From a virus (taxonomy: Duplodnaviria > Caudoviricetes), in the IMG/VR virus record IMGVR_UViG_3300017565_000026, positions 1-43,113 of that record: a DNA stretch of 43,113 nucleotides, one strand, 5' to 3'. Position numbers and translations under genes: made by a program. Numbering within the stretch: position 1 is the stretch's first letter; every line of letters starts with the position of its first letter. Under the pieces are notes generated by a model, which saw only the letters and a program-made list of their open reading frames with translations, searched no databases and had not been told where the DNA came from. This document shows, in pieces, positions 1,130 through 19,731 of the stretch.

Positions 1130-1786
1130 TCATAAAGGTTCGAGAATTGCAATAGGCACCGTCATGGCAACCGGTCTGCCCATGACCGAAACCTCGACCA
1201 CAACCAGACCATTTCCTTTCGAGCCGCCAGAGACCAACTCAGCACGGCACCCGGCAAATGGGCCGTCAGCAACCCGCGCCCATTTCACACCAATGAACCT
1301 GCGATGGAAATGTTCATAATCGTATTTACCATCTTCCGCTTTCGCTCTGAAAACAAAGACCTTTTCAGCGCTGACAAGAAATGGCGTCTCGTACCCACCG
1401 AGGATGGAAATGACATGATCGAAGCTCAACAGACCGGCAAGGCATTCGTTCAAAACTGCACAGCGTACCAGCACATAACCATTCATGACGGGCTGCTGTT
1501 TGGCCGGAATGACTCGATGCTGTCGACGAACTACTGGACCCATTTTCATGGGGACAAGCACTTCAATATTCTCACTGCCGAGCGCATCACGTACCGAAAG
1601 TTCGCGTCCTGACACCACTTGAAGCACCAGCCACGGAGAATCATCGCAGACGCGATTCGCTGCAGCGGCCCTCATTCGAGCTACCCGTCGGCGCTCAGAC
1701 AGCACCTTGTCTATAGCTCTGCACTGGTCAGTAGTCGGCTGCATTGATAGCGCCGCGTCGATCTGCTTGCGGTCAATTGCCATCAT
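1130..1786 (-). CDS. NusG/RfaH-family transcription antiterminator (late regulator)
   Basis: NGN domain (WLVLQVVSGRE..PVMNGYVLVRC) plus KOW motif (ARVADGPFAGCRAEL); occupies the Q-gene position. Confidence 0.85.
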   Translation of the reverse strand: MMAIDRKQIDAALSMQPTTDQCRAIDKVLSERRRVARMRAAAANRVCDDSPWLVLQVVSGRELSVRDALGSENIEVLVPMKMGPVVRRQHRVIPAKQQPVMNGYVLVRCAVLNECLAGLLSFDHVISILGGYETPFLVSAEKVFVFRAKAEDGKYDYEHFHRRFIGVKWARVADGPFAGCRAELVSGGSKGNGLVVVEVSVMGRPVAMTVPIAILEPL

Positions 1787-3011
1787 GTTCACCCAATCCC
1801 CTCAAAGCAGATTCAAATTCATAAAGCGCGTCAGGCCCGCCTTTTGGGCAGTAGACAACTGCCAATCGATCAAACTCACCTGGCCAAGGCCATGCCCTTC
1901 GCCTGAATTCGTCCCTCCATGCAGCCAGCATTGTCGTGTCTTGCGGCACAGGCTCCATCAGGGAAGCCGCCTCATGCCACATAGCCGGGAACACAGCCCC
2001 GCCCTTCTGTTGCTGGATATCCCGGAACCGGGCTATCGCCGGCCATGCCTTCACAAGCTGCGATTTCGGCAAGAATGAGCTGCGAGCCAATTCACGATCA
2101 GCAGGACCATCGAGCAAATGTGCAAACATTCGGGCCAGACCCACCGGGCCAAGGCAGGAAGCCCAGCCGTCCGGCTTGCGTTCCTCGCTACGCGAAGCCT
2201 GCGCCTTGACGGTTTCCACCCGTTTCAGAATTTCAGGATCCAAAGCGGTCCATGTGCGGTCCCGCAGGAAATTGCCTACAGCTTGCGGGCTTTTCTTCCT
2301 TGCGGCCACATCCAGCAGATAGGCATCGCGCCACTGTTCGGCCTTCCGCCGCTCTTCCGGTGTCAGGCTGGCAAAACGCTTTGCTATCCAGTCCAGTGCA
2401 GCGCCTACGTCCCAGTCCTTCCAAGGCCCAGCAACAAATCCGGTGCCGTTGCAGAACCGGGCAACACGTTTCTGGAAAGCGGCAGACGCCGGATTGTCTT
2501 CTGCTGGCATCGCCACTGCATCATTCCCTCTTTCCTCATTTTCGCTCGCGCGCGCCTCTCTCTCTTCGTTAAAAGGGGTTGTTAAAGAGGGGTCGTTAAT
2601 AGGTGCCGGTCCAGAACCGGCAGGGGGTGCCGGTTCTAGGGCGGCAGGGGGTGCCGATATACCGGCAGGGGTGCCGACATAGCGGCAGGGGTCATCGGCG
2701 TCGGAAATGCTCGTCACATCCAGGTGCTTCGGATCAAGAACGACCCGATACCAATGCGCGCTATCGCGCCCGCTGTCCGACTCTTGGACGTGACGCTCCA
2801 AATAACCGGCATCCACCAGACGATTGATCGCATCGAAAACGGTTGAACGGGCGCAGCCCATCTCGTCCGCCATTCTCACCTGACTGCGCCGACACCAGCC
2901 CAGATCATCGGTATGCCTGCCGAGGACGCAAAGCACCTGCAAGTCACGAGGTTTCAACGCCTTGTCGGTGGCCGCACGGGCCGGAATAATGGAAAGACGT
3001 GGCCCGCTCAT
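1773..3011 (-). CDS. Phage replication initiator with N-terminal HTH
   Basis: LQVLCVLGRHTD..GWCRRSQVRMADEMGCARSTVFDAINRLVDAGYL winged HTH; Pro-rich linker encoded by iterons. Confidence 0.8.
   Translation of the reverse strand: MSGPRLSIIPARAATDKALKPRDLQVLCVLGRHTDDLGWCRRSQVRMADEMGCARSTVFDAINRLVDAGYLERHVQESDSGRDSAHWYRVVLDPKHLDVTSISDADDPCRYVGTPAGISAPPAALEPAPPAGSGPAPINDPSLTTPFNEEREARASENEERGNDAVAMPAEDNPASAAFQKRVARFCNGTGFVAGPWKDWDVGAALDWIAKRFASLTPEERRKAEQWRDAYLLDVAARKKSPQAVGNFLRDRTWTALDPEILKRVETVKAQASRSEERKPDGWASCLGPVGLARMFAHLLDGPADRELARSSFLPKSQLVKAWPAIARFRDIQQQKGGAVFPAMWHEAASLMEPVPQDTTMLAAWRDEFRRRAWPWPGEFDRLAVVYCPKGGPDALYEFESALRGLGEHDGN
2565..2695. repeat. Iterons of the putative replication origin
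   Basis: Palindromic CGGCA-G4/5-TGCCG units at 2618-2632, 2642-2656 and 2663-2676, a partial copy at 2683-2693, and GTTAA repeats at ~2568-2600; inside the rep gene like lambda ori in O. Confidence 0.7.
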
Positions 3012-3582: not shown

Positions 3583-3926
3583 TCTGCACCTCGCCACTCG
3601 ACAACATGCAGACCGAGATAGTGGGCAAGCGACAGCTCAATCCCCGCACCCTTCGATGTTTTCCAGCCCGAAAGCAGCACGATCGTATCGGCGCACTGGC
3701 ATAGAAATGCGCAATGCGCGGCCATCGCATCCCGAATGGGATACTCTTCCATTGGGCCATCAAATGGGAATTCAGCCGGGTTGTAGACGTAATGGCCGCT
3801 CGCCCGTAGTTCGCGAGCGACACGGTGAAACGCCGGATAATTGAATTCCGGTAGACCCGTCATTGGACCGGATAAATAGATGGTTTTTCCGCGCTCGCCC
3901 GCGCGCACTGGCGGACAGCCTGTCAT
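3579..3926 (-). CDS. DUF4406 / nucleoside 2-deoxyribosyltransferase-like protein
   Basis: IYLSGPMTGLPEFNYPAF..YNPAE..CADTIVLLSGWKTSKGAGIELSLA signature. Confidence 0.8.
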   Translation of the reverse strand: MTGCPPVRAGERGKTIYLSGPMTGLPEFNYPAFHRVARELRASGHYVYNPAEFPFDGPMEEYPIRDAMAAHCAFLCQCADTIVLLSGWKTSKGAGIELSLAHYLGLHVVEWRGAE

Positions 3927-5104
3927 CGCTCTGGCCCCGCAGCTTCATAACCCCAGGCATCCCAGCCGGGACGCGGCGAACGGCAGAACAGTTCAAGCTT
4001 TGGAACATCGGGATAAAGCCGCTCGATCTGCTCGGCGAACCATGCTGGCTTTGCCGAATGCTTGCCCTTGCGCTCGCGGTGCACTGTTTCAGGCTGGGTA
4101 CCAGCCAGCGGCGCAGGCGGGTTACCGCGCTTGCCGATCAGCAACAGTTCATGCCGGTCGCGGCCCCAATATCCGGTCCCTGCGACTTCCTTGTCCCAGA
4201 TCCAGTGATGGACATAGGTGAAGCCCCAAGCCCGCATGACCCCAACCGCGTCCAGCAGCATCGGATTGGTGGCCCAGAGAAAGAGCAACGCATCGGGCGT
4301 GAATGGTGAGCCGATCTCAGCAAGAAGGCCGGATATCGACGCTATATCCATTGTCGGATAATGGTTTTCCGCGCTCTTTTCCCGTCCCGTTTCTTCCGAG
4401 TAAACCCCGAACCGCCATGGCGGATCAGCGTAGATGATCGGAAAAAGACGCTCGACCTTTCCTGGGGCCGTTTCCCTCCCCTTTTCGGCAACCATTGCCA
4501 TTGTCGTAAGCCGAACCGCATGGCGAACCTTTTGCTGCTCGGACCGAATTTTCTTGGCCTCAGCAACAATCGCTTTCTTTTCCTTCCGAACAACCCGCGC
4601 CTGTTCGGCATGCTGGAGTTCAGACAATGCCTCGCCCGAATGCACCGACACTTTGCCGGTACGGATCGCGTCAATGAGTTCCGGCGCACCATGTTCGCGC
4701 ACACGCCGAGCAGCCGTCACCGCACGTTCGGAAACAGATAGCTTTTCCGCCGCGCGTCGGGTCGGCAAATTTGCCGACCCAGCAGTGGCCTGATTAACAC
4801 CCCGCTCCCAATCCACGATCATCGCCGCCGCAATGGCGCGCTGGCTTTCGCTAAGGTGACGCCTGTGCAGGTTCTTCGACAGTACGAAGCTGAGAGGATC
4901 AGAACCAGTAAACTCGGCATAGACCGGATCGACACCGGCCAGACCGCAGGCGGCCTGCCGGTTGCGCCCGTCCAGAACCTTCCCCTCCAACAGTAGGATA
5001 GGCTCGACCTGACCGTTTGCAGCGATGTCAGCAGCGAGAACCTTCAAATCGGCTTCCGCGATCATCGGAAAAATGTCGGCGAGTGGATGCGACGGATATG
5101 TCAT
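3923..5104 (-). CDS. ParB-like domain fused to MT-A70 family N6-adenine methyltransferase
   Basis: N-terminal HPLADIFPM..EPI..VLDGRNR..KNLHRRHL; C-terminal IYADPPW, LFLWAT, HSAKP, LELFCR..GWDAWGYE. Confidence 0.9.
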   Translation of the reverse strand: MTYPSHPLADIFPMIAEADLKVLAADIAANGQVEPILLLEGKVLDGRNRQAACGLAGVDPVYAEFTGSDPLSFVLSKNLHRRHLSESQRAIAAAMIVDWERGVNQATAGSANLPTRRAAEKLSVSERAVTAARRVREHGAPELIDAIRTGKVSVHSGEALSELQHAEQARVVRKEKKAIVAEAKKIRSEQQKVRHAVRLTTMAMVAEKGRETAPGKVERLFPIIYADPPWRFGVYSEETGREKSAENHYPTMDIASISGLLAEIGSPFTPDALLFLWATNPMLLDAVGVMRAWGFTYVHHWIWDKEVAGTGYWGRDRHELLLIGKRGNPPAPLAGTQPETVHRERKGKHSAKPAWFAEQIERLYPDVPKLELFCRSPRPGWDAWGYEAAGPER

Positions 5105-5551: not shown

Positions 5552-5935
5552 TCACGACATGCCAAGCGCGTCCATGTAGAGCTGCAGCATCGCCTGCTCT
5601 TCCTGACGCTCGTGATCTTCTTTCTTGCGAAGGCGGATGATTGCCCGGACGGTTTTCGCGTCGAAACCCGAACCCTTCAGCTCGGCATAGACGCCCTTGA
5701 TATCGTCGACGATTTCGGATTTTTCCCCTTCCAGCCGCTCGATACGCTCAATGAAGGCGCGAAGCTGGCCCGCCGCGATAGTCTGGACTTCCGAGGTGAT
5801 ATTGTCGCCTGCCGTCGGAAGGACTTCGGGCGCATCCTGCTCTTCAGCCTCAATATCGACGGCCTTGGTACGCCTTTTCCCTGACTTCACCGGTTGGGTG
5901 CTCCACGGATCATATCCCTCCTGAGCGTCAGCCAT
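5552..5935 (-). CDS. gapR: GapR / DUF2312 nucleoid-associated protein homolog
   Basis: [58 protein letters not shown] is the DUF2312 signature. Confidence 0.9.
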
Positions 5936-6131
5936 GACCAACCACCTTTCCAGCACGAAGGCGCGAGCCACCTTCGACGGTGACCCGCGCTATCGCATCT
6001 GCTTTTTCAGGATATCGATTGAGGATCCGGCGCGACCTGTCGCAACCATAACGACCGACTGCCTGCCGCCAGCACATAACGCCGACATCACCATCGATGA
6101 TCAGGAATTTCATGCGCCAGCCAGCGATCAT
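5928..6131 (-). CDS. Small hypothetical protein
   Basis: 67 aa, overlaps both neighbours in operon fashion. Confidence 0.45.
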
Positions 6132-6604
6132 GCCCCTGCCTCCAGTCGGCGGACAAGATCGTCCATTACGCGCATAAGTTCGCGAGCTTCCTTGCCGATG
6201 TTCTTGCGCTCGGCGGCATCGATGCGGTTATCCGTCAGGGCTTCGATGATCGCCTGCGAAACATCCATCCCCTCTTTCATGATGCGCATCGCATCTTTTT
6301 CGGAAATAGGGACAGGCGACGCCGCGACACCGCTGCGAATGCCGACCGGCACCAGCTCGTAACCGAGGAGCGCAGCCATTTCCTTCGTAATCGTCGGCGA
6401 CTTGGCGGCGCGGTCAATCTCGATCGCCACGTCGATCGGCGCGAAACTGTCGGTGTTGTCCTCGCCGAAAGACGCGTACTTCGAAAGCTGCGAGGTTGAG
6501 ACACGAGTAAAGTCCAGAATGCGGGAAATGCCACCCGACAACACATATGCACCGTCGGTTGCAGCCTTAAGAGTCCGGCGTTCCGGCTCGGAAATAGTGC
6601 GCAA
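6128..6604 (-). CDS. Phage CII-like regulatory protein
   Basis: Downstream of cro; LKAATD..GG..VSTSQLSKYAS..FAPIDVA and EALTDNRIDAAER..KEAREL pattern of the phage CII family. Confidence 0.65.
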   Translation of the reverse strand: MRTISEPERRTLKAATDGAYVLSGGISRILDFTRVSTSQLSKYASFGEDNTDSFAPIDVAIEIDRAAKSPTITKEMAALLGYELVPVGIRSGVAASPVPISEKDAMRIMKEGMDVSQAIIEALTDNRIDAAERKNIGKEARELMRVMDDLVRRLEAGA

Positions 6605-6733
6605 GAGAACCTCCCTGAAACGTCAAGGAAAAATTTCGGTCAAAGGATTCGGTGAATTTCGCCAGCCCTACCGATAGGACTGTCTGGTCAAGTCAAACAG
6701 GTGGCCCGCAGGCCGGAGAACAACGAGATGAAT

Positions 6734-7204
6734 TCATCGCAAGCCCTCCGAAATTGCTGCCGGGGCGCATCTGGCGTCTCTCAAACCGTGCGCCCCGGCG
6801 CTTCCGTCCGACTGGGAGGAGGAATCGGACGAATGGAAACTGGTTGCAGGGACCGGAATCGAACCGGCGACCTCCGGGGTATGAACCCGGTGAGCTACCT
6901 CTGCTCTACCCTGCTCAGAAATAGCTGGAGCGCCGCTGGGGTTAGCGGGGGGCGACGACGCTCCAGCCTCACCCGCAGAGGAACCGACGGGCGAAAAATG
7001 CGGCTTTCCAAATACGTCAGGTCGCAGCAGGTGGCGGGAAATACCCGTCAAACGCTCCACATCAAGAACCCTCTCAGGCGGCACAACGAACCACTGGTTC
7101 ACCGCCTGCGGTGTGATGCAAAGCGAACGCGCCAAGGAACTGGCACCCCTTGCCCGGTCTTTAGCGGCCTCAAGGGCCATATGCATTTCGTCTCTGTCAG
7201 CCAT
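6734..7204 (-). CDS. cro: Cro-like / YdaS-family HTH regulator with long low-complexity C-terminal extension
   Basis: GASSLARSLCITPQAVNQWFVVPPERVLDVERLTGISRHLLRPDVFG; divergent from cI. The extension overlaps a tRNA and hairpins. Confidence 0.85.
   Translation of the reverse strand: MADRDEMHMALEAAKDRARGASSLARSLCITPQAVNQWFVVPPERVLDVERLTGISRHLLRPDVFGKPHFSPVGSSAGEAGASSPPANPSGAPAISEQGRAEVAHRVHTPEVAGSIPVPATSFHSSDSSSQSDGSAGAHGLRDARCAPAAISEGLR
6802..6838 (-). ncRNA. Cuckoo-type hairpin with CCUCCUCCC anti-SD loop
   Basis: The - strand reads CGUCCGAUU-CCUCCUCCC-AGUCGGACG, a 9 bp stem with the loop at 6814-6822. Confidence 0.6.
6841..6915 (-). tRNA. tRNA-Met(CAT), initiator-like
   Basis: Full cloverleaf: AGCAGGG TA GAGC AGAGGTA GCTC A CCGGG TTCATAC CCCGG AGGTC GCCGG TTCGATT CCGGT CCCTGCA A CCA. 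Unpaired 1:72 (A/A), three G:C pairs closing the anticodon stem, encoded CCA. Confidence 0.9.
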
Positions 7205-7214
7205 GCGCCGTTTT

Positions 7215-7250
7215 AAAGCATAGCTTTCATTGCAATGCAAGGGATACTTA
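7215..7250. promoter_or_regulatory. Operator pair between cro and cI (OR-like)
   Basis: AAAGCATAGCTTT (7215-7227) and CAAGGGATACTTA (7238-7250); matching pair with the same 10 nt gap at 8330-8365. Confidence 0.7.
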
Positions 7251-7251
7251 A

Positions 7252-7983
7252 ATGGACGAATTTATCCACATTGAGTCACATCCCATTATGGATGAGACAC
7301 AACTATCGCAAAAAATTGGCTTAGCCCTTCGCACCGCACGGAAACAGCGCGGGCTTGTTATGCGCGACATTGCGGCAGCCGCTGGCGTTAGCACTGGCGC
7401 AGTCGGCAACTGGGAACGTGGCGCGAACGTCATGTCGATGGAGAATCTTCAAGCGGTTGCATCCTTCCTCGACATTGACCCAATTGCATTGAGCAAGGGA
7501 ACCGTTCGTTACCTGTCCAATCAGAGCGATGTTTCGGATGCGGAAATCGTATCCGACATGACCCACATTGATACCGGCCCACTCGATGTGGAGATACTGG
7601 GCGTAGCCGTAGGCGGCGATGATGGCGACTTCACCTTAAATGGAGAAGTCGCAGGTTATGCTCGCCGACCGGCTGGCATCGCTCATCTGAGAAAAGTGTT
7701 TGCACTTCATGTACTTAGTGACAGCATGGAACCGCGATACGAGCCGGGAGAACTGCTATATTGCGGCGGACGTGACGCGGTGGCTGGTGATGATGTCGTT
7801 ATAGAGACCTTTCCTGCAGAGGGCGAAACAGTAGGAAAAGCCTATATTAAACGCCTTGTTAAACGGTCGAAAACTGAAATTATTTGCAAGCAATACAACC
7901 CTGCTAAGGAACTGGTTTTCGACCCCTACGCTATCAAGAATATGTGGCGAGTGATACCTACGCGCGAGCTTCTCGGCTATTGA
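7252..7983 (+). CDS. cI: CI-like repressor (XRE HTH + S24 autopeptidase); start may be 7288
   Basis: HTH IAAAAGVSTGAVGNWERG; S24 Ser motif SDSMEP and Lys motif YIKRL. Confidence 0.92.
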   Translation: MDEFIHIESHPIMDETQLSQKIGLALRTARKQRGLVMRDIAAAAGVSTGAVGNWERGANVMSMENLQAVASFLDIDPIALSKGTVRYLSNQSDVSDAEIVSDMTHIDTGPLDVEILGVAVGGDDGDFTLNGEVAGYARRPAGIAHLRKVFALHVLSDSMEPRYEPGELLYCGGRDAVAGDDVVIETFPAEGETVGKAYIKRLVKRSKTEIICKQYNPAKELVFDPYAIKNMWRVIPTRELLGY

Positions 7984-8644: not shown

Positions 8645-8798
8645 TGAAGTCCAATTCCACACCGAGGCGGGGTTTTCTCTGCCCGCAAACTACAAGATCG
8701 AAGATCGAGAAACGACATTTCGCATCATGCTGATTGTCTTCGGATGCTGCTTTGCGGCTGGCACCGTACTCGGGTTGCAGATGGCGGGGTTGATATGA
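8637..8798 (+). CDS. Small membrane protein
   Basis: MRDEVQFH..IMLIVFGCCFAAGTVLGLQMAGLI hydrophobic C-terminus; overlaps both neighbours. Confidence 0.5.
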   Translation: MRDEVQFHTEAGFSLPANYKIEDRETTFRIMLIVFGCCFAAGTVLGLQMAGLI

Positions 8799-9928
8799 CT
8801 GGACCGACCGCCATCAGATTCACCATCGAACGGCGCGCACTGCTTCCGGCCTTGTCGGCTGTCAACCGCGCCGTGGAAAAGCGAAACACGATACCTATTC
8901 TCGGCAATGTGTTAATAAAATCGGAAGAAGGTTATCTGACGATCACCGGCACTAATCTCGATATCGAGGTTAAGTCTCGAGCCAGGCAGACCGGCATACC
9001 CGACTTCCCACCATTTACGGTTCCTTCCGCTCTCCTACATGCTGCGGTCAGTAAGTTTCCGGACGGTTGCGAAATCGAGTTCACTGTCGACAGCGCTGCG
9101 GTCACCATTCGGGCCGGACGATCGCGACTTCAGTTGCCGCTTTTACCAGCGAAAGACTTCCCGGCAATGAGTGAAGGCGATTTCACTCATCAATTCGCGA
9201 TGACGAGCAACGATCTGTCACGGGCCATATCCACTGTTGGATTTGCCGTTTCAACAGAAGAAACCCGATACTATCTCAATGGCATATTTATGCACCGCGA
9301 TCAGGACCAGTTGGCATTTGTAGCCACTGACGGGCATCAATTCGCTTATATGAAGATTTCTGCGCCAGAAGGCAGTAGTGATATTCCGGGAGTGATTATC
9401 CCTCGCGGTGTGCTCACGTTGCTCGCCCACTGCGCCAAAGTCGATGGTGAAGTTGCATTCTGTCTGTCAGATCGCAAGATCCGCACTGCATTTCCCGATG
9501 GGGTGACTGTCACGTCGAAACTTGTCGACGGCACCTACCCGGATTATCGACGCATCATTCCTTCCGGACATGACAAGACATACAGCGTTGACCGCGAGGC
9601 ACTGCTTGCCGCCGTTGGTCGTGTGAGCCTGGTGGTGCCGGAGAAATCTGATGCTGTCAGGTTCACTTTTGGATCTGAAGACGTGCGTCTGGAGATCAAT
9701 AATCCAGAAGCCGGTCATATGGAGGATGCTGTCACTCTTTCCGATAGCCATCCAGAAGATACCGTCATCGGCCTAAGCTATCGATATTGCACCAACGTGT
9801 TGAGCGCCACAGATGCGAGCGAGATGCGCTTTTCGCTCAACGATCCCACGAGTCCATGCCTTGTCTCACCAGTAATGGATCCAGAGGCTGGAGATCCTCC
9901 CCTTTTTCTCATTATGCCAATGCGTTGA
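8795..9928 (+). CDS. dnaN: DNA polymerase III beta sliding clamp
   Basis: AVEKRNTIPILGNVLI, TGTNLDIE, STEETRYYLNGI, VATDGH, SKLVDGTYPDYRRIIP, LIMPMR; full three-domain length. Confidence 0.95.
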   Translation: MTGPTAIRFTIERRALLPALSAVNRAVEKRNTIPILGNVLIKSEEGYLTITGTNLDIEVKSRARQTGIPDFPPFTVPSALLHAAVSKFPDGCEIEFTVDSAAVTIRAGRSRLQLPLLPAKDFPAMSEGDFTHQFAMTSNDLSRAISTVGFAVSTEETRYYLNGIFMHRDQDQLAFVATDGHQFAYMKISAPEGSSDIPGVIIPRGVLTLLAHCAKVDGEVAFCLSDRKIRTAFPDGVTVTSKLVDGTYPDYRRIIPSGHDKTYSVDREALLAAVGRVSLVVPEKSDAVRFTFGSEDVRLEINNPEAGHMEDAVTLSDSHPEDTVIGLSYRYCTNVLSATDASEMRFSLNDPTSPCLVSPVMDPEAGDPPLFLIMPMR

Positions 9929-13480: not shown

Positions 13481-14101
13481 TTAGGGAAGTATCTGACCGC
13501 GATGCTGGAAGGCTATATGTGCATAACCATTCGCGGTCCCGTCTTCCCGAATGTAGTCGTCGAGTTCAAGCTCCTCCCCATCAAGATATTCGAGGACTTT
13601 CTCGCGATCCTTGCGTAATTCAGGGTGATTTAATTGGAGCACATCAATCATTACCTCTGCAGCTAGATCGCCAAGTACTGAAGGCACAACTTCGCCGCTC
13701 CGCCGAAACGAGAAACGCGAGGTACATGCGGCATAGATCGGCTCGACATGATTATTCTCATCGAACCAATCATCCTTGACATTGCCACAGGTTGGAGATG
13801 GCGCGCCGTGGGCGTCGCGCTGACCACAACTTAGGAACAGATTATTGTACTCCACTTGGAGTTCAGGAAAGGTAGCCCTGGGTCGGAAATGCTCAATATG
13901 AAACGTCTGCCCAGGGTAGGACAAATCAAGTCGACGTCCGCAGTACACACACAATCCTCGCTGCTCACGAAAAAACTCGCAAACCAATGCTTTTCTTACA
14001 TTCTTATCGAGATTCCTGTATGTGGGCCGCCAATCCTCATTCTCATCACCCAGCCAACTAATAAATTCAGCTGGCGCGGCTTCTTTACGACTGCCCTTCA
14101 T
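13481..14101 (-). CDS. ptuB: PtuB-like HNH nuclease (TIGR02646-type)
   Basis: EQRGLCVYCGRR..HIEHFRPR..YNNLFLSC..CGNVK..IDVLQLN; directly after an ABC ATPase. Confidence 0.8.
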   Translation of the reverse strand: MKGSRKEAAPAEFISWLGDENEDWRPTYRNLDKNVRKALVCEFFREQRGLCVYCGRRLDLSYPGQTFHIEHFRPRATFPELQVEYNNLFLSCGQRDAHGAPSPTCGNVKDDWFDENNHVEPIYAACTSRFSFRRSGEVVPSVLGDLAAEVMIDVLQLNHPELRKDREKVLEYLDGEELELDDYIREDGTANGYAHIAFQHRGQILP

Positions 14102-14103
14102 TT

Positions 14104-15354
14104 CTAACCCCTGAGTTTTTTAAGACGCTTCATCAAAAGCAACAACTCAGGCGGGTCACCTTCAATTTGCTTCTTAATCTGCTCAAACAACAACTCAGCG
14201 TGATCCAAGTTCTTGGTATCTATTGCATCGTTAAATCTGTCAATTAGACGGTCGCTCTCCGGGAAGCGCTCATGAGCACCAAATACGCCTTCTAACAAGT
14301 AGTTACTGGTTTGCCCTTTTGTTTTTAAAGGTATCTTTACTTCATGCCCCCCGTCTTCATTTCTTTCCAATATACGAACATGCTCTCGTTCTATCGATGA
14401 TATTACTTGTGGAGAATGTGTTGTTATTATAAATTGGCATTCCTTGAATACACGGCGCAATGTAACAAGAATTTTACTTTGCCATTCCGGATGGAGGTTC
14501 AGTTCAATTTCATCTATTAATACGATACCTGGTATATCGCTCAACGAAGCGTCTGGCTTCATTAACTGAAGCCGTCGCGCTAAGTCTGCCAGAAGTATAA
14601 TGAAAGATCGCTCCCCCGAGGAAAGCATGCTGACATGAACAGACGATCCGTCCTGCTTGTCAAAATAGAGTCCCACTGGATTGCGTGTCGAGGAATAAGT
14701 GACGCGTTTGAAGCCGTCAATCTCAGTGATGAGTTTTCTTATCGCCTCCAGTTGAGGATCTCTGAATTCTCTATCTAGGTCTCGTACGGTTCTAGCTTCC
14801 TGGGCGTCGTGTCTATCCCACCAAGATTCCAAATGACTAATAGCTTTAAGCTCGCCCTGCAGCGACGTTATGATAGTGGCTTTTTTGTCAACTAGTTCAC
14901 CCGACATACCGCCATTGTTTTCAAACCCTCTGTCCTGTCGATAGTATACCATCAAAGGTCGTTCGACCTTTGCAAAGCCACCACTGTAAGCAGTATTGAA
15001 GAAGTTCAAAAGATCCGGGTTTTCATGCAAACCTTGATGCTCTGAATAGAGGTTTAATTTTTCCGGGAACCCAATTCCTTTAAATTCGCCCCAATTTACT
15101 TTGATGCTGATAAAAGTCGCCTGATCAGGCCGCTTCTTATCTGTTGCGGGGATCCTTGTATCCGGCCCCATCGGCTCAAACTCGTCAGAGCGCCAGGAGA
15201 ATTGTATTACTCTTAACAGGGTGGCGGCGGCATCAAGGACAGAAGACTTGCCTACACCGTTTCGCCCCACAATAATGGTGAGGTCGTGATTGAACTCTAA
15301 GGCTAGCCTGTCAATCCCGCGATAATTTTCAAGGTAGAGCCTATCAATTTTCAT
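14104..15354 (-). CDS. ptuA: PtuA-like ABC ATPase (Septu-type defence)
   Basis: Walker A GRNGVGKS, signature LSSGERS, Walker B IVLIDEIELNLHPEWQ, QFIITTHSP; visibly AT-richer than the flanks. Confidence 0.8.
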   Translation of the reverse strand: MKIDRLYLENYRGIDRLALEFNHDLTIIVGRNGVGKSSVLDAAATLLRVIQFSWRSDEFEPMGPDTRIPATDKKRPDQATFISIKVNWGEFKGIGFPEKLNLYSEHQGLHENPDLLNFFNTAYSGGFAKVERPLMVYYRQDRGFENNGGMSGELVDKKATIITSLQGELKAISHLESWWDRHDAQEARTVRDLDREFRDPQLEAIRKLITEIDGFKRVTYSSTRNPVGLYFDKQDGSSVHVSMLSSGERSFIILLADLARRLQLMKPDASLSDIPGIVLIDEIELNLHPEWQSKILVTLRRVFKECQFIITTHSPQVISSIEREHVRILERNEDGGHEVKIPLKTKGQTSNYLLEGVFGAHERFPESDRLIDRFNDAIDTKNLDHAELLFEQIKKQIEGDPPELLLLMKRLKKLRG

Positions 15355-15687: not shown

Positions 15688-15768
15688 TTACTCCCACTGA
15701 GAGGAATATGTTCCTGAGCGCCCCTGCACTCGGGCGCGGTTCCGCGCATTCTGATTTTGGAGCGTGTC

Positions 15769-17043
15769 TTGCGCCTTCCTGAGACTATCGAGCGTCTGTA
15801 CCTCGACTTTGACGGCTTCTTCGCGAGCGTCGAACAGCAATGCGATCGCCGCCTACGCGGTCGGCCAATCGGCGTTGTTCCCTTCGAAGGGACAGACCGC
15901 ACAGCAGTCATCGCCTGCTCAAAAGAGGCGAAGGATTTCGGCGTAAAAAACGTTATGCCTATCAAGGAAGCAAAACGGCTCTGCCCAGACCTTATCCTGG
16001 TCCCCCAGAAACCCGACCTTTACAGGCGCGCTCATAACGCGCTGCTCTGCGAGATCGAGACCGTCATCGCCATCGACACGGCCAAGAGCATCGATGAACT
16101 GACGTGCGTGCTGGACGACAGCGGCAAGCGAGATCCTGAGCTACTGGCAGCTAGAATCAGAGCCGCGATTTCGGAGAACATCGGCCCCTACATCACCTGC
16201 TCGATCGGTTTCGCGGCCAACCGGCAGCTGGCGAAAATAGCCTGCAAAGCAGGGAAGGAAGAGACAAAGCGTCGAGGCGCTTACGGAAACGGATTGGCAA
16301 TTTGGTGGCCCGCTATCATGCCGGACCCGCTGTTGCGCGTCGAACTGGAGGACATACCCGGCGTTGGATCTAATATGGCGAAGCGGCTTTATCGCAATGG
16401 CGTGTTCACAACCACCCAGCTTTACGCTCTGCAGCCGAAACACATGCGCAAGATCTGGAACAGCGTCAACGGTGAACGACTTTGGTATGCCTTGCACGGC
16501 TACGATATCCAGGCGCCAGCGCAGCAGCGTGGCATGTTCGGCCATGGTCGCGTTCTGCCACCAGAAGCCCGGTCGATCAGCGGTGCCTATGAAATCTCCC
16601 GCCTTCTGCTGACCAAAGCCGCCCGTCGCCTTCGCCGGGAAAACTTCTATGCAGCTGGCCTCTGGCTTTGGCTATCGGTGCGCGACGGTTCATGGTTCGG
16701 CAAACACTATCTGCCGGTCGTGAACGATGACCAAGCTATTCTGTCGGCTCTGCGCTTGCTCTGGAAGCGCGTGCGCGACGATCATCCGCGAGGTGTAACC
16801 ATCTTCCGCGTCGGCGTGACGCTCTATGATTTGTCACCAGCTGGCGAACGGCAGATGGACATGCTGAATAATGACGATGCAGTGCGCCAAAAATGGGAAA
16901 AGGCAAACAACGCCGTCGATACGCTAAATACCAAGTATTCCGGCACCATCGTCAGTATGGGCGAGTGGAAGCCGCCAACTGGCGGGCACGTCGGCGGTAA
17001 GATCAGTTACACTCGCATCCCGTCGGCTGAGGATTTCTGGTGA
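15769..17043 (+). CDS. Y-family translesion DNA polymerase (DinB/UmuC superfamily)
   Basis: YLDFDGFFASVEQ, SIDE, SIGFAANRQLAKIA, DIPGVG; clamp-binding-like QMDML. TTG start has a GGAG RBS. Confidence 0.92.
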   Translation: MRLPETIERLYLDFDGFFASVEQQCDRRLRGRPIGVVPFEGTDRTAVIACSKEAKDFGVKNVMPIKEAKRLCPDLILVPQKPDLYRRAHNALLCEIETVIAIDTAKSIDELTCVLDDSGKRDPELLAARIRAAISENIGPYITCSIGFAANRQLAKIACKAGKEETKRRGAYGNGLAIWWPAIMPDPLLRVELEDIPGVGSNMAKRLYRNGVFTTTQLYALQPKHMRKIWNSVNGERLWYALHGYDIQAPAQQRGMFGHGRVLPPEARSISGAYEISRLLLTKAARRLRRENFYAAGLWLWLSVRDGSWFGKHYLPVVNDDQAILSALRLLWKRVRDDHPRGVTIFRVGVTLYDLSPAGERQMDMLNNDDAVRQKWEKANNAVDTLNTKYSGTIVSMGEWKPPTGGHVGGKISYTRIPSAEDFW

Positions 17044-17297
17044 TGGGCAATTGGAAATCGACAATCAAGGTCCGCGATCTGGACGATGAGCAGCGGCTTG
17101 AACTGACCTGCAAAAAATGCGGACGCGTGACCTACGCAACAAAGCAGCTGCTTTGCGAGGGAACCGATCGTTCACAAAAATATCTGGACGAGATCGAAGC
17201 GAAGGTCCGCTGCAAGGCGCGCGGCTGCCACGGGCACATGCGCATGGCAATGGTTCGCCTGCAGGAAATGAGCGGCTTTGTCGGAGGGCTGGCATAA
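17043..17297 (+). CDS. Small Zn-ribbon protein coupled to the polymerase
   Basis: TGATG overlap with the pol stop; LELTCKKCGR..RCKARGCHG. Confidence 0.75.
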   Translation: MGNWKSTIKVRDLDDEQRLELTCKKCGRVTYATKQLLCEGTDRSQKYLDEIEAKVRCKARGCHGHMRMAMVRLQEMSGFVGGLA

Positions 17298-17312
17298 ACA
17301 CCTAAAAGCAAA

Positions 17313-17340
17313 AGCCCGTCAGCTAACCGGCTGGCGGGCT
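17313..17340. terminator. Hairpin closing the polymerase operon
   Basis: AGCCCGTCAGC-TAACCG-GCTGGCGGGCT; A-tract upstream, no clear U-tract on +. Confidence 0.5.
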
Positions 17341-17443
17341 CAATATTCTGCGGCGCCGCGTTACGTAACACTAATTGATAAAATTTTGCTTTTTAGCGAT
17401 CGCTAATAAGGTAGAGTTACGCCTTTAGTATAAGGAGGCTGAC

Positions 17444-17725
17444 ATGCCGTTTTTCAACGAAGCGAGCCGAATATATACGCCTGTCGAAGTCGATTTCTTA
17501 CGCAGCTGTTTCACGAATGCAGCCGTCCTCCTCGAAGAAAGCGACCGCGATTATTCGGCCAGTGAACTCTCATCCTGCGTTATGAGGCTATACGAGCATG
17601 GATTGCGTGATTGCAATCATCTCTGCGAGCTCGCCGCCCGGCTTGCCCATCAGAAGTATGCAGTTCGAAATCACATGCCCGCATTGGAAGCCAACTCGAA
17701 CGATGCCGAGGGAACCTTTTCCTAA
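17444..17725 (+). CDS. Small hypothetical protein
   Basis: 93 aa with strong TAAGGAGG RBS and AT-rich upstream region. Confidence 0.75.
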   Translation: MPFFNEASRIYTPVEVDFLRSCFTNAAVLLEESDRDYSASELSSCVMRLYEHGLRDCNHLCELAARLAHQKYAVRNHMPALEANSNDAEGTFS

Positions 17726-17863
17726 GCGCGCGGTTTGGAGCCCCTGGTGTCAGTGACCGTTTTCCAAGCTCGGAAGCTGCGCCTACCCTGCACCGTCATG
17801 TGGGGTGCCCTTATGGGGGACGGGGACGGCGCGAGGTGCCCCCACTGACCACTACCTTGCGCA

Positions 17864-17903
17864 GCCCCGGCGACCTCAAAAGGCGCCGGGGTTTCGCGTT
17901 TTT
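17864..17903 (+). terminator. Rho-independent terminator
   Basis: GCCCCGGCG..CGCCGGGGT stem followed by TTCGCGTTTTT. Confidence 0.65.
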
Positions 17904-17917
17904 CGCAAGAACAAAAA

Positions 17918-17989
17918 TGATTCGCATACACCGGAACGAATCAAAGAGTGATTCGTTCGGACTCGGTTGAAAGTGATTCGGATGAATCG
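17918..17989 (+). promoter_or_regulatory. ku promoter region: EcfG/RpoE2-type promoter overlapping a GANTC cluster
   Basis: GGAAC(17933-37)-N16-CGTT(17954-57); GANTC at 17919, 17938, 17950, 17960, 17975 and 17984. Confidence 0.65.
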
Positions 17990-18015
17990 CTTTAGTTGTG
18001 CCAGGAGTATGCGAG

Positions 18016-18906
18016 ATGGTTGCACCAAGAGCGAATTGGAAGGGCTATATCAAGTTCGGAGAGGTTTCTTGTCCAGTAGCTTTGTACACCGCCGCGTCTA
18101 CTTCCGAGCGGATTTCATTTCACACAATCAACCGCAAAACCGGCAACCGGGTCAGAAGAGAATTCGTCGACAGTCAGACCGGCAAACCCGTTGAACGTGA
18201 AGATCAGGTCAAGGGATACGAAGTGGATGATCACCGATACGTGGTTCTTGAGCCCGATGAGGTAGCCGCCGCGATCCCCGAAAGCGACAAGACCTTGCAG
18301 ATCGAAGCCTTTATCCCATGCGACCAGGTTGATACTGCTTATTTCGACAAGCCCTACTATCTCGCTCCCGATAAGATGGGCACGGAGGCGTTCGTCCTGC
18401 TTCGTGATGGCATGAGGAAGGCCAAGGTGGCCGCCATAGCGCGCACCGTTTTATTCCGCCGCATGCGAACGGTGCTTATCCGTGCCCACGGAAAGGGGCT
18501 GACCGCTTCCACGCTCAATTTCGATTACGAGGTGCGTTCTGCTCAAAAGGCTTTCGATGATGTGCCGGATATCAAGATTGAAGGCGAAATGCTGGAGCTA
18601 GCGGAACACATCATCGGCACCAAGGCTGGCGAATTTGACGCCAGCAAATTTGACGACCGATATGAGGAGGCTGTGGCCGAGCTGGTCAAGGCAAAGATCG
18701 AAGGTAGAACCCTTCCTAAGAAAAAGGCGCCCGTCGCGTCCAAGCCGAGCGATTTGCTGCAGGCTCTCCGCGAAAGTGCCGGTCTTGGCGCCGCGAAGAC
18801 GAAGCGCACGGCAGCTAATGCGGATCGTGCCCCAGCTCGAAGAAAGGCAGCCAAAGCTGCCACAAATTCCAGAAAGTCTGCTTCCCCCACGAGACGGGCA
18901 AGTTAA
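18016..18906 (+). CDS. ku: Ku protein (NHEJ end-binding), copy 1, with basic tail
   Basis: PRANWKGYIKFGEVSCPVALY, VKGYE, YFDKPYYLAP, FDDRYEEAV, DLLQALRES. Confidence 0.95.
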   Translation: MVAPRANWKGYIKFGEVSCPVALYTAASTSERISFHTINRKTGNRVRREFVDSQTGKPVEREDQVKGYEVDDHRYVVLEPDEVAAAIPESDKTLQIEAFIPCDQVDTAYFDKPYYLAPDKMGTEAFVLLRDGMRKAKVAAIARTVLFRRMRTVLIRAHGKGLTASTLNFDYEVRSAQKAFDDVPDIKIEGEMLELAEHIIGTKAGEFDASKFDDRYEEAVAELVKAKIEGRTLPKKKAPVASKPSDLLQALRESAGLGAAKTKRTAANADRAPARRKAAKAATNSRKSASPTRRAS

Positions 18907-18918
18907 GGAAAATTTGAG

Positions 18919-19731
18919 ATGGCCGTTCGTCCATACTGGAAGGGATACCTGAAGCTCTCGCTTGTCACCTGCCCTGTCGAAATGATGCCCGCGACTTCGG
19001 AAAGTGAGAAGGTCCGCTTTCACACCTTAAACCGACAGACCCAAAACCGCGTTATCAGTCACTATGTCGACGCGGTGACCGGCAAGGAAGTCAGGGAGGG
19101 AGATGAGGCCAAAGGCTACGAGCGAGGAGAAGGTGAATATGTTCTCCTCGAAGAGGAAGAACTGGAGAATGTTGCGCTCGACAGTACCAAGACGATCGAC
19201 GTTGAAATGTTCTCGCCTCGTGAAAGCATCGGGTGGATTTGGCTCGACACCCCCTACTATCTGTCTCCTAGCGATCCCGTCGGCGAGGAAGCTTTCGCGG
19301 TTATTCGCGAGGCTATGAAAGCTGAGAACAAGGTTGGCATATCGAGGTTGGTGCTGTCTCGGCGTGAACGGGCCGTTATGCTTGAGCCGCGCGGCAAAGG
19401 GATAGTTCTCTGGACACTGCGCTACGGCGACGAAGTGCGTGACGAAGACCTCTATTTTGAAAGGATTGGCGAGGAGAAGGCCGATCCGGACGCACTGCCG
19501 CTGATAGAAAAGTTCATAAAAAAGCAAACCAGGGACTGGAAGCCCGACCTGGTCCACGACCCGGTTCAGGAGCGCCTGCTTGACATCATCGCAGCCAAAA
19601 AGAAGACACTAAAAAAGCCGACGAAAGCAAAGCCGAAAGCGTCCGACGCCGAACCGCAACGTGGTAACGTGATCAACATCATGGACGCTTTGCGGAATTC
19701 GTTGAAGAACGAGACTCGAAAGTCGAAGTGA
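18919..19731 (+). CDS. ku: Ku protein, copy 2
   Basis: RPYWKGYLKLSLVTCPV, KGYE, DTPYYLSP, TLRYGDEVR, NVINIMDALRNSL. Confidence 0.95.
   Translation: MAVRPYWKGYLKLSLVTCPVEMMPATSESEKVRFHTLNRQTQNRVISHYVDAVTGKEVREGDEAKGYERGEGEYVLLEEEELENVALDSTKTIDVEMFSPRESIGWIWLDTPYYLSPSDPVGEEAFAVIREAMKAENKVGISRLVLSRRERAVMLEPRGKGIVLWTLRYGDEVRDEDLYFERIGEEKADPDALPLIEKFIKKQTRDWKPDLVHDPVQERLLDIIAAKKKTLKKPTKAKPKASDAEPQRGNVINIMDALRNSLKNETRKSK

Follow-up and report, generated by a model that had tools for sequence, protein, structure and literature searches.

The phage DNA analyzed here (a virus record of 43,113 nucleotides, IMGVR_UViG_3300017565_000026, called the window below) contains a lysis-lysogeny control region in which ribosomes leaving cro could be passed along coupled open reading frames (ORFs) almost to cII, and in which the opposite strand carries a Shine-Dalgarno (SD)-like sequence, an ATG and a long ORF directed towards cI. 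From this arrangement we put at roughly one half the probability that the region is a convergent switch of the lambda/186 type with both transcripts covered by ribosomes. Comparison of related loci shows conserved open frames, a peptide that is not under selection, covarying RNA stems, the antisense SD-ATG and operator-like repeats.

Control region of the phage

The window is the record of a temperate, alphaproteobacterial phage and carries cI, cro and a CII of the CP76 type in the canonical order of a lambda/186-type lysis-lysogeny switch (Table 1). Downstream of cII a GapR-like gene and a methylase gene are followed by the replication genes. The nearest labelled relatives are prophages of Brucella in the broad sense (B. 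pecoris, B. rhizosphaerae). The tRNA type described below was found in 6 of 44 genomes of Brucella in the broad sense and, in a genome scan at the family level, in 2 of 401, one of these outside a cro context.

Other features of the genome were recorded. The products encoded downstream of cII are a GapR-like DNA-binding protein (5552-5971, minus strand) and a fusion of ParB-like and MT-A70 methylase domains (3923-5104, minus strand). No SD-like sequence was present upstream of cro (7205-7222, minus strand), and cro may be leaderless. A NusG-family protein (1133-1792, minus strand) closes the early-middle operon and is a candidate late antiterminator. An AAA ATPase (AAA_15/AAA_21) followed by an HNH protein (13484-15354, minus strand) is oriented opposite to the flanking genes, and from its sequence the pair looks like a two-gene anti-phage defence module. 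The phage also encodes a Y-family polymerase (IMS) with two tandem Ku genes (15757-19728, plus strand) and a homologue of the DNA polymerase III beta clamp (8744-9928, plus strand).

Table 1. Features of the cI-cro-cII region of the window. Hairpin z-scores are overstated, each folded piece having been trimmed to its stem.
Feature	Position	Strand	Basis
CII-like activator, CP76 family, TTG start	6128-6604	-	Pfam PF06892; PHROG 101
Untranslated spacer, predicted CII site and promoter towards cI	6605-6692		Repeats, candidate -10
14-codon mini-ORF, ends Gly-Pro-Pro-Val-stop	6693-6737	-	ATGA overlap with cro stop; SD 6744-6749
Antisense ORF, 162 aa, in register with cro	6728-7216	+	SD-like GGAGA 6715-6719; no Pfam match
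cro tail, 90 codons and stop, in frame	6734-7006	-	Frame kept open, peptide unselected
hp3, 11-bp GC stem, variable loop	6759-6799	-	z -5.1
hp2, loop CCUCCUCCC (cuckoo/ar14-like motif)	6805-6831	-	z -4.0
Initiator tRNA-fMet(CAU), encoded CCA, read through in cro frame	6841-6915	-	ARAGORN; Rfam RF00005, 61 bits
hp1, 13-bp GC stem, variable 18-nt C-rich loop	6924-6967	-	z -5.2
hp0, anti-SD-like pyrimidine loop, resembles hp2	6969-6994	-	97% paired, no two-sided change
Cro domain, YdaS/P22_Cro type	7007-7204	-	Profile match; without own stop codon
cI repressor (HTH and S24 peptidase)	7252-7983	+	Pfam HTH_3, Peptidase_S24; PHROG 4

Initiator tRNA and hairpins within the cro frame

A preliminary description of this DNA, made from the sequence alone, had proposed that the end of cro forms a cassette of four RNA modules, a tRNA and three hairpins. 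ARAGORN, Rfam and folding confirmed all four at their positions on the minus strand, and a fifth hairpin, hp0, which that description had missed, completes a layout in which the tRNA is flanked by two hairpin pairs; in some relatives a third pair is present as a 78-nt insert. When the cassette was compared in 24 relatives, 98% of the cells were paired and 13 of 57 base pairs were changed on both sides (6 in the tRNA, 3 in hp1, 1 in hp2, 3 in hp3 and 0 in hp0), which supports the stems as structured elements; the shuffle control for this covariation is lenient, since the structure was taken from the window and the sequences are related. Insertions and deletions in the hp1 loop measured 6 and 9 nt. 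The 5' end of hp0 is a sharp mosaic boundary to the Cro domain, and by this boundary, at 6996, lies a loose end.

Initiator tRNAs are identified by an unpaired 1:72 position, three G-C pairs at the base of the anticodon stem and a purine 11-pyrimidine 24 pair. All these marks were found in the window tRNA, in which A1 and A72 are unpaired, and the CAU anticodon, cloverleaf and CCA end are all present. Some tRNA call was made in 37 of the 91 listed loci anchored on CII (defined in the next section), and each of the 31 copies that could be parsed has retained CAT and sits in an open frame; 4 of 35 tRNA sequences were unparsed and left out of the CAT count. Its anticodon loop has U32/C38 in 32 of 47 listed loci, as against C32/A38 in the chromosomal copies of a labelled relative. 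This difference would suit evasion of nucleases; most simply, the tRNA would supply initiator tRNA early in lytic growth. Individual copies deviate and are still in frame: those of L059, L167, L168, L170 and L198 have an extra acceptor-stem mismatch beside position 1, the anticodon arm of L254 is disrupted and the anticodon of L287 is CAA.

The frame of cro is indeed open beyond the RPDVFG end of the Cro domain, for 90 codons and not the approximately 95 first counted. Openness alone is weak evidence, as the tail stayed open in 18% of dinucleotide shuffles of the window sequence. The combination of open frame and structures is nevertheless, on comparative grounds, more than chance, because it is conserved across relatives: both frame openness and module order are kept in those bearing the tRNA, and the homologs there do not stop after the HTH domain, which the preliminary description had named as an outcome that would speak against it.

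A protein search returned the cro tail fused to many different Cro domains. Since such a search favours in-frame cases, loci were gathered with a DNA pattern on the tRNA, which listed at least 221 loci, or at least 136 after exact duplicates were dropped (L221 duplicates the window). Local profiles identified a cI or CII neighbour in 47 of the listed 136, and the other 89 were used as controls. In 28 of these 47 listed loci, the window included, cro itself runs through the tRNA, and in 17 the ORF spanning the tRNA starts on the stop of cro or of the following gene, so that the tRNA is fused or coupled in 45 of the 47; the misfits are L114, where the start lies 27 nt after the cro stop, and L234, which has no cro upstream. 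Among the listed controls 4/89 were coupled and 24/89 had 50 open bases upstream. None of these counts are independent, because the loci are related and recombining. The fused Cro domains fell into 8 sequence clusters (L199 was left unclustered), so at least 8 unrelated families enter the cassette in one frame, and by this measure the Cro domain is an exchangeable module. That the distances from start to tRNA are all 2 mod 3 is true by construction and was discarded as evidence.

In the cassette alignment (A6, with 4 loci carrying large insertions left out) all nine gap blocks were multiples of 3, and no stop codon was found where about 6.9 were expected from 302 parsimony changes, an expectation that ignores constraint from RNA structure. 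The peptide itself is free to change. Its pN/pS was 0.92 in 22 tails, compared with 0.37 for CII, and within the same 7 loci 0.96 in the tail and 0.17 in the Cro domain (6 loci were left out of the pN/pS set). If dual coding is taken to mean that the Cro tail works as a protein, these values speak against the proposal, and a functional C-terminal domain of Cro was rejected on the pN/pS near 1 together with a flat codon-position pattern.

The exact form of the CCUCCUCCC loop occurs once in the window, in hp2, which scored 20 bits against the ar14 model (RF02344, gathering score 58.8). With one exact motif and this score, the cuckoo/ar14 architecture of 2-4 consecutive motif-bearing hairpins above the gathering score is absent. 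Neither a put/nut antiterminator nor a P1 C4-type RNA was detected at the Rfam gathering score, where only the tRNA was found, or among 7 weak matches; the suggestion of a put/nut-like antiterminator is further weakened by the lack of such an element across the phage family as a whole. A blastn search with the whole cassette against named phages matched 34 records, in the tRNA part only. The reverse strand of hp2 was considered as a second ribosome-binding site and rejected, its start codon not being conserved.

Relay of coupled ORFs before cII

Loci were also collected by CII. Of 98 loci, 91 were kept once 3 with short upstream DNA and the duplicates were taken out, one of the sources contributing the best 80 of 104 matches. 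In these loci cro usually ends in an ATGA overlap, from which a chain of unrelated ORFs leads on, with or without a tRNA, and in 74 of the 91 listed loci this relay ends on PP(x)-stop shortly before cII, as against 1, 0 and 2 of 91 in control stretches. As 54 of the 91 listed loci are without a tRNA call and most of these keep relay and Pro-Pro-stop, the view of the cassette as the core of the system is not supported. The core, as far as sequence comparison goes, is the coupled ORF relay from cro to the Pro-Pro-stop, which is present in phages lacking the tRNA as well. The cassette is optional, and on the best reading tRNA and hairpins would be in-frame cargo. Hairpins with an anti-SD loop were found at 8 of 60 relay ends and at 0 of 60 controls.

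The relay ORFs encode 4-250 aa of unrelated sequence, with no conserved arrest residues upstream of the Pro-Pro-stop across them. In 65 of 75 loci of the family the stop stands directly after PP (TGA 29, TAA 20, TAG 16), and all four Pro codons are used before it. The following 50 nt contain 33% C and 19% G, and the distance from relay stop to cII is 75-195 nt. The mini-ORF at 6737-6693 is the last sense link in the window; it ends PPV-stop, so that Pro is not directly before the stop. The same pattern is seen in phi2LM21, phi3LM21, PPF1, RR1-A and MseS-P1, where the linking ORF is mostly unannotated, and in AmM-1 cro is coupled straight to cII, without a spacer. Extra ORFs of 56-245 aa lie within the relay of L173/L075, L086, L211, L174 and L197, even between hp1 and the tRNA, with the start/stop chain intact. 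Judged by what its members carry, the relay is an insertion hotspot for cargo genes.

The spacer between relay and cII has direct repeats in the window (6623-6629 and 6640-6647) and a candidate -10 sequence at 6675-6680 on the plus strand; both occur in spacers of the window's type, and the repeats are conserved there. Spacers of the sister type contain paired palindromes with co-varying half-sites in 67 of 71 cases, 65 of them at a spacing of 28 bp. These operator-like repeats sit upstream of the antisense start described below, and from this arrangement we infer a CII-activated promoter in the spacer, which would fire towards cI as in 186. The SD of cII lies within a short hairpin (6613-6628, minus strand) that spacers of this type conserve; the start codon of cII is TTG or GTG.

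Antisense ORF towards cI

Read on the opposite strand, the Pro-Pro-stop motif gives GGNGG, five bases and an ATG. Of 54 non-redundant loci, 37 have this ATG at a distance of exactly 11 nt from the motif, and 5 more have it at 14 nt, in the same frame. The frame it opens has a median of 120 aa, compared with 26 and 37 aa for the other frames, and reaches at least 60 aa in 33 of the 37 loci (4 were shorter), against 36% of control ATGs. Among loci that have the ATG, 42 of 43 show A or G as the middle base of the antisense SD; of those that lack it, 4 of 14 do, a bias that a Shine-Dalgarno sequence predicts. The antisense ORF extends to cI, its stop overlapping the cI start, in 7 of 41 loci; many of the ORFs fall short of cI by 50-250 nt or more.

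The group to which the window belongs has mostly lost the usual ATG, and another with a weaker SD serves. In 23 of 30 loci of the group this substitute is found in register 6-30 nt beyond the stop of the tail, and 26 of 30 have an in-register antisense frame that spans the cassette. In the window this frame ends 35 nt before the cI ATG. Neither this ORF with its ribosome-binding site, nor the mini-ORF, nor the probable CII-activated promoter figured in the preliminary description. The frames of both strands were open in 1% of shuffles. Antisense stops do occur within the cassette, though fewer than expected: 3 of 24 sequences have them, at 4 codons where about 11.5 would be expected if constraint from RNA structure is again ignored. 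Across cro itself a long antisense ORF is cheap, because GC-rich genes often have an open antisense frame in register; for the genes of this phage such frames have 1.4% stops per codon. A protein function for the antisense ORFs was rejected, as 0 of 18 matched Pfam. In RR1-A (L352) a hypothetical gene annotated on the minus strand (1559-1855), located between tRNA and cII, overlaps with where the antisense ORF lies.

Proposed mechanism and alternatives

In the reading that we prefer, ribosomes on the lytic RNA would leave cro, pass one or more filler ORFs by start/stop overlap and stop 75-150 nt before cII; in the window the cro frame would span the cassette and then hand ribosomes to the 14-codon ORF. 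At establishment, CII bound in the spacer would fire the promoter towards cI, and the SD and ATG at the start of this RNA would open an ORF in register through cro. The peptides of both filler frames would be irrelevant. What would matter is the trailing ribosome, which would shield each RNA polymerase from Rho and help it to survive head-on collisions, and polymerase survival would set the odds of lysis and lysogeny. Inserts such as the initiator tRNA, hairpin pairs and extra genes would have to stay readable, hence in-frame insertions and deletions and the avoidance of stops. The tRNA, once released, would be a working initiator tRNA in the earliest operon, and the cassette would double as a homology boundary where cI-cro modules are swapped. 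An extended form of this reading, which we advance tentatively, is a natural two-way escort switch in which ribosome-coupled polymerases collide and the outcome reads the translation state of the host; here the tRNA would be a translation-gated cut site which, when ribosomes thin, would release tRNA-fMet, strip cro of its stop and tip the race to cI.

Four rival explanations can coexist with ribosome cover on both strands. In one, tRNA processing itself is the switch: where ribosomes are sparse, the tRNA would fold and be cut out by RNase P and RNase Z, a shortage of initiator tRNA thereby favouring lysogeny, the upstream piece would be a stop-less cro mRNA whose product is tagged by tmRNA and destroyed, and the downstream piece would start with two stabilising hairpins and carry cII. 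Selection on the tRNA as a tRNA (CAT in 31/31 parsed copies, 6 two-sided pairs), the hairpin pairs on both of its flanks and the fusion to cro in 28 listed loci are as this account would have it, yet most listed CII-anchored loci keep the relay without a tRNA, in 17 listed loci a filler ORF and not Cro would lose its stop, and the antisense SD-ATG goes unexplained; we regard it as rather doubtful. The account sharpens the idea of the preliminary description, and small RNAs may indeed be processed out, with translation competing against folding. An attenuator is, in our estimate, unlikely. It would use the relay to bring a ribosome to Pro-Pro-stop, where its pause would hide a site at which Rho loads or reshape the cII leader, as in TnaC. 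The use of all four Pro codons and all three stops directly after PP, the C-rich and G-poorer stretch downstream, and the retention of PP in 14 loci without the antisense ATG fit such a pause, and Pro-Pro-stop stalls ribosomes in a plant system according to the available text of PMC11077094. CCN-CCN is, however, the reverse complement of the antisense SD, and since its variable base tracks the antisense ATG, PP may be a shadow of that SD; the finding of the antisense SD-ATG thus demoted Pro-Pro-stop as a pure stall signal. The window moreover has PPV-stop, conserved arrest residues are lacking upstream and the spacing to cII varies between 75 and 195 nt. The sense frame is selected too, as is shown by an in-frame stop that occurs in all three forms.

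It is improbable, in our view, that the open frames are a by-product of GC content, RNA constraint and shared ancestry in a phage that gained an initiator tRNA and a recombination linker. The 18% of shuffles that stay open, the lack of amino-acid selection and the mosaic boundary at hp0 would follow from it, and U32/C38 (32/47 listed) in place of the host C32/A38 is expected for tRNA supply or nuclease evasion. Against it stand the entry of at least 8 unrelated Cro families in one frame, though other frames would give a harmless early stop, the coupling in 45/47 as against 4/89 listed loci, insertions and deletions all in threes and the fixed spacing of the antisense SD-ATG. Least probable to us is that the anti-SD hairpins are the active elements, as small RNAs of the cuckoo/ar14 kind, as cis blockers of the SD of mini-ORF or cII, or through kissing loops with the antisense transcript. 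hp2 has the exact CCUCCUCCC loop and a weak ar14 match, the hairpin unit occurs two or three times per cassette and is enriched at relay ends (8/60 against 0/60), and both SDs downstream are possible pairing partners of the loops (-9.8 and -11.2 kcal/mol); but any anti-SD loop pairs with any SD, no test of loop-target covariation was passed, the ar14 score is far under the cut-off and 52 of 60 relay ends are without such a hairpin.

If ribosome cover on both RNAs is real, the outcome of lysis or lysogeny would read the translation state of the host. A large phage group seemingly loading ribosomes on both convergent RNAs would be a natural test of coupling, Rho and collisions, and culturable phages in which this could be tested are phi2LM21, phi3LM21 and PPF1, which lack the tRNA, and MseS-P1, which has it. 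It would also be an instance, found repeatedly, of translation running through a conserved initiator tRNA, and would account for the long junk tails in annotations of these Cro proteins and for the small ORFs missed here.

Comparison with known systems

TnaC-type leader peptides are short ORFs with Pro at the stop, followed by a C-rich untranslated spacer, and the end of the relay resembles them, with Pro directly before the stop in 65 of 75 family loci though not in the window. Unlike TnaC it has no conserved arrest peptide or ligand, and its motif doubles as an antisense SD. The cuckoo/ar14 small RNAs, as presented in the accessible text of PMC4615179 (RF02344), share the CCUCCUCCC hairpin loop, the modular repeats and the bacterial families found here. 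The cassette differs from them: it has one exact motif, alternating with stems that lack it, and lies within an ORF in a phage operon; the words 'phage' and 'prophage' do not occur in the text available for that paper.

Parts of the locus have been recorded before. In RR1-A a tRNA-Met is annotated between cro and cII, as a plain tRNA gene, although it lies inside an unannotated coupled ORF of 209 aa. A CAU tRNA was reported for 15 of 25 phiLM21-like prophages without its placement, and the portion of the paper available makes no mention of a tRNA inside a coupled ORF (PMC12429752). For the control region of the phages only cI and cro are named in the sections available of PMC5537653. The Creative Commons content of PubMed Central and bioRxiv, which omits most subscription papers, yielded no account of such a relay, of the antisense ORF or of a tRNA in frame.

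The known switches are pR-apl-pE-cII in phage 186 and PR-cro-tR1-PRE-cII in lambda. The region resembles 186 in its CII, which is of the 186 (CP76) family, and lambda in having cI and cro back to back; with both it shares operator-like repeats just upstream of cII and, as predicted here, convergent lytic and establishment transcription. Interference between PR and PRE has been described (PMC5001618, available text). In current models of lambda and 186 the establishment RNA goes untranslated and is at a disadvantage when polymerases collide. According to the accessible sections of PMC6593788, no translation takes place in the overlap on the RNAs from 186 pE and lambda PRE, polymerases with and without translation are removed by collisions in a ratio of 7%:93%, and the establishment RNA loses; the RNA predicted here would instead carry an SD-ATG and a long ORF. 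In the sense gap after cro, where lambda has nutR and tR1, coupled ORFs are found. An engineered parallel also exists: in the expressome-on-expressome interference described in the available part of bioRxiv 2020.09.23.310730, an ORF was likewise extended through the antisense of the opposing gene, the ribosome protecting the polymerase from Rho, and interference rose about 6-fold. That system is synthetic and, per its authors, the first of its kind, whereas the one proposed here, if real, would be natural and widespread.
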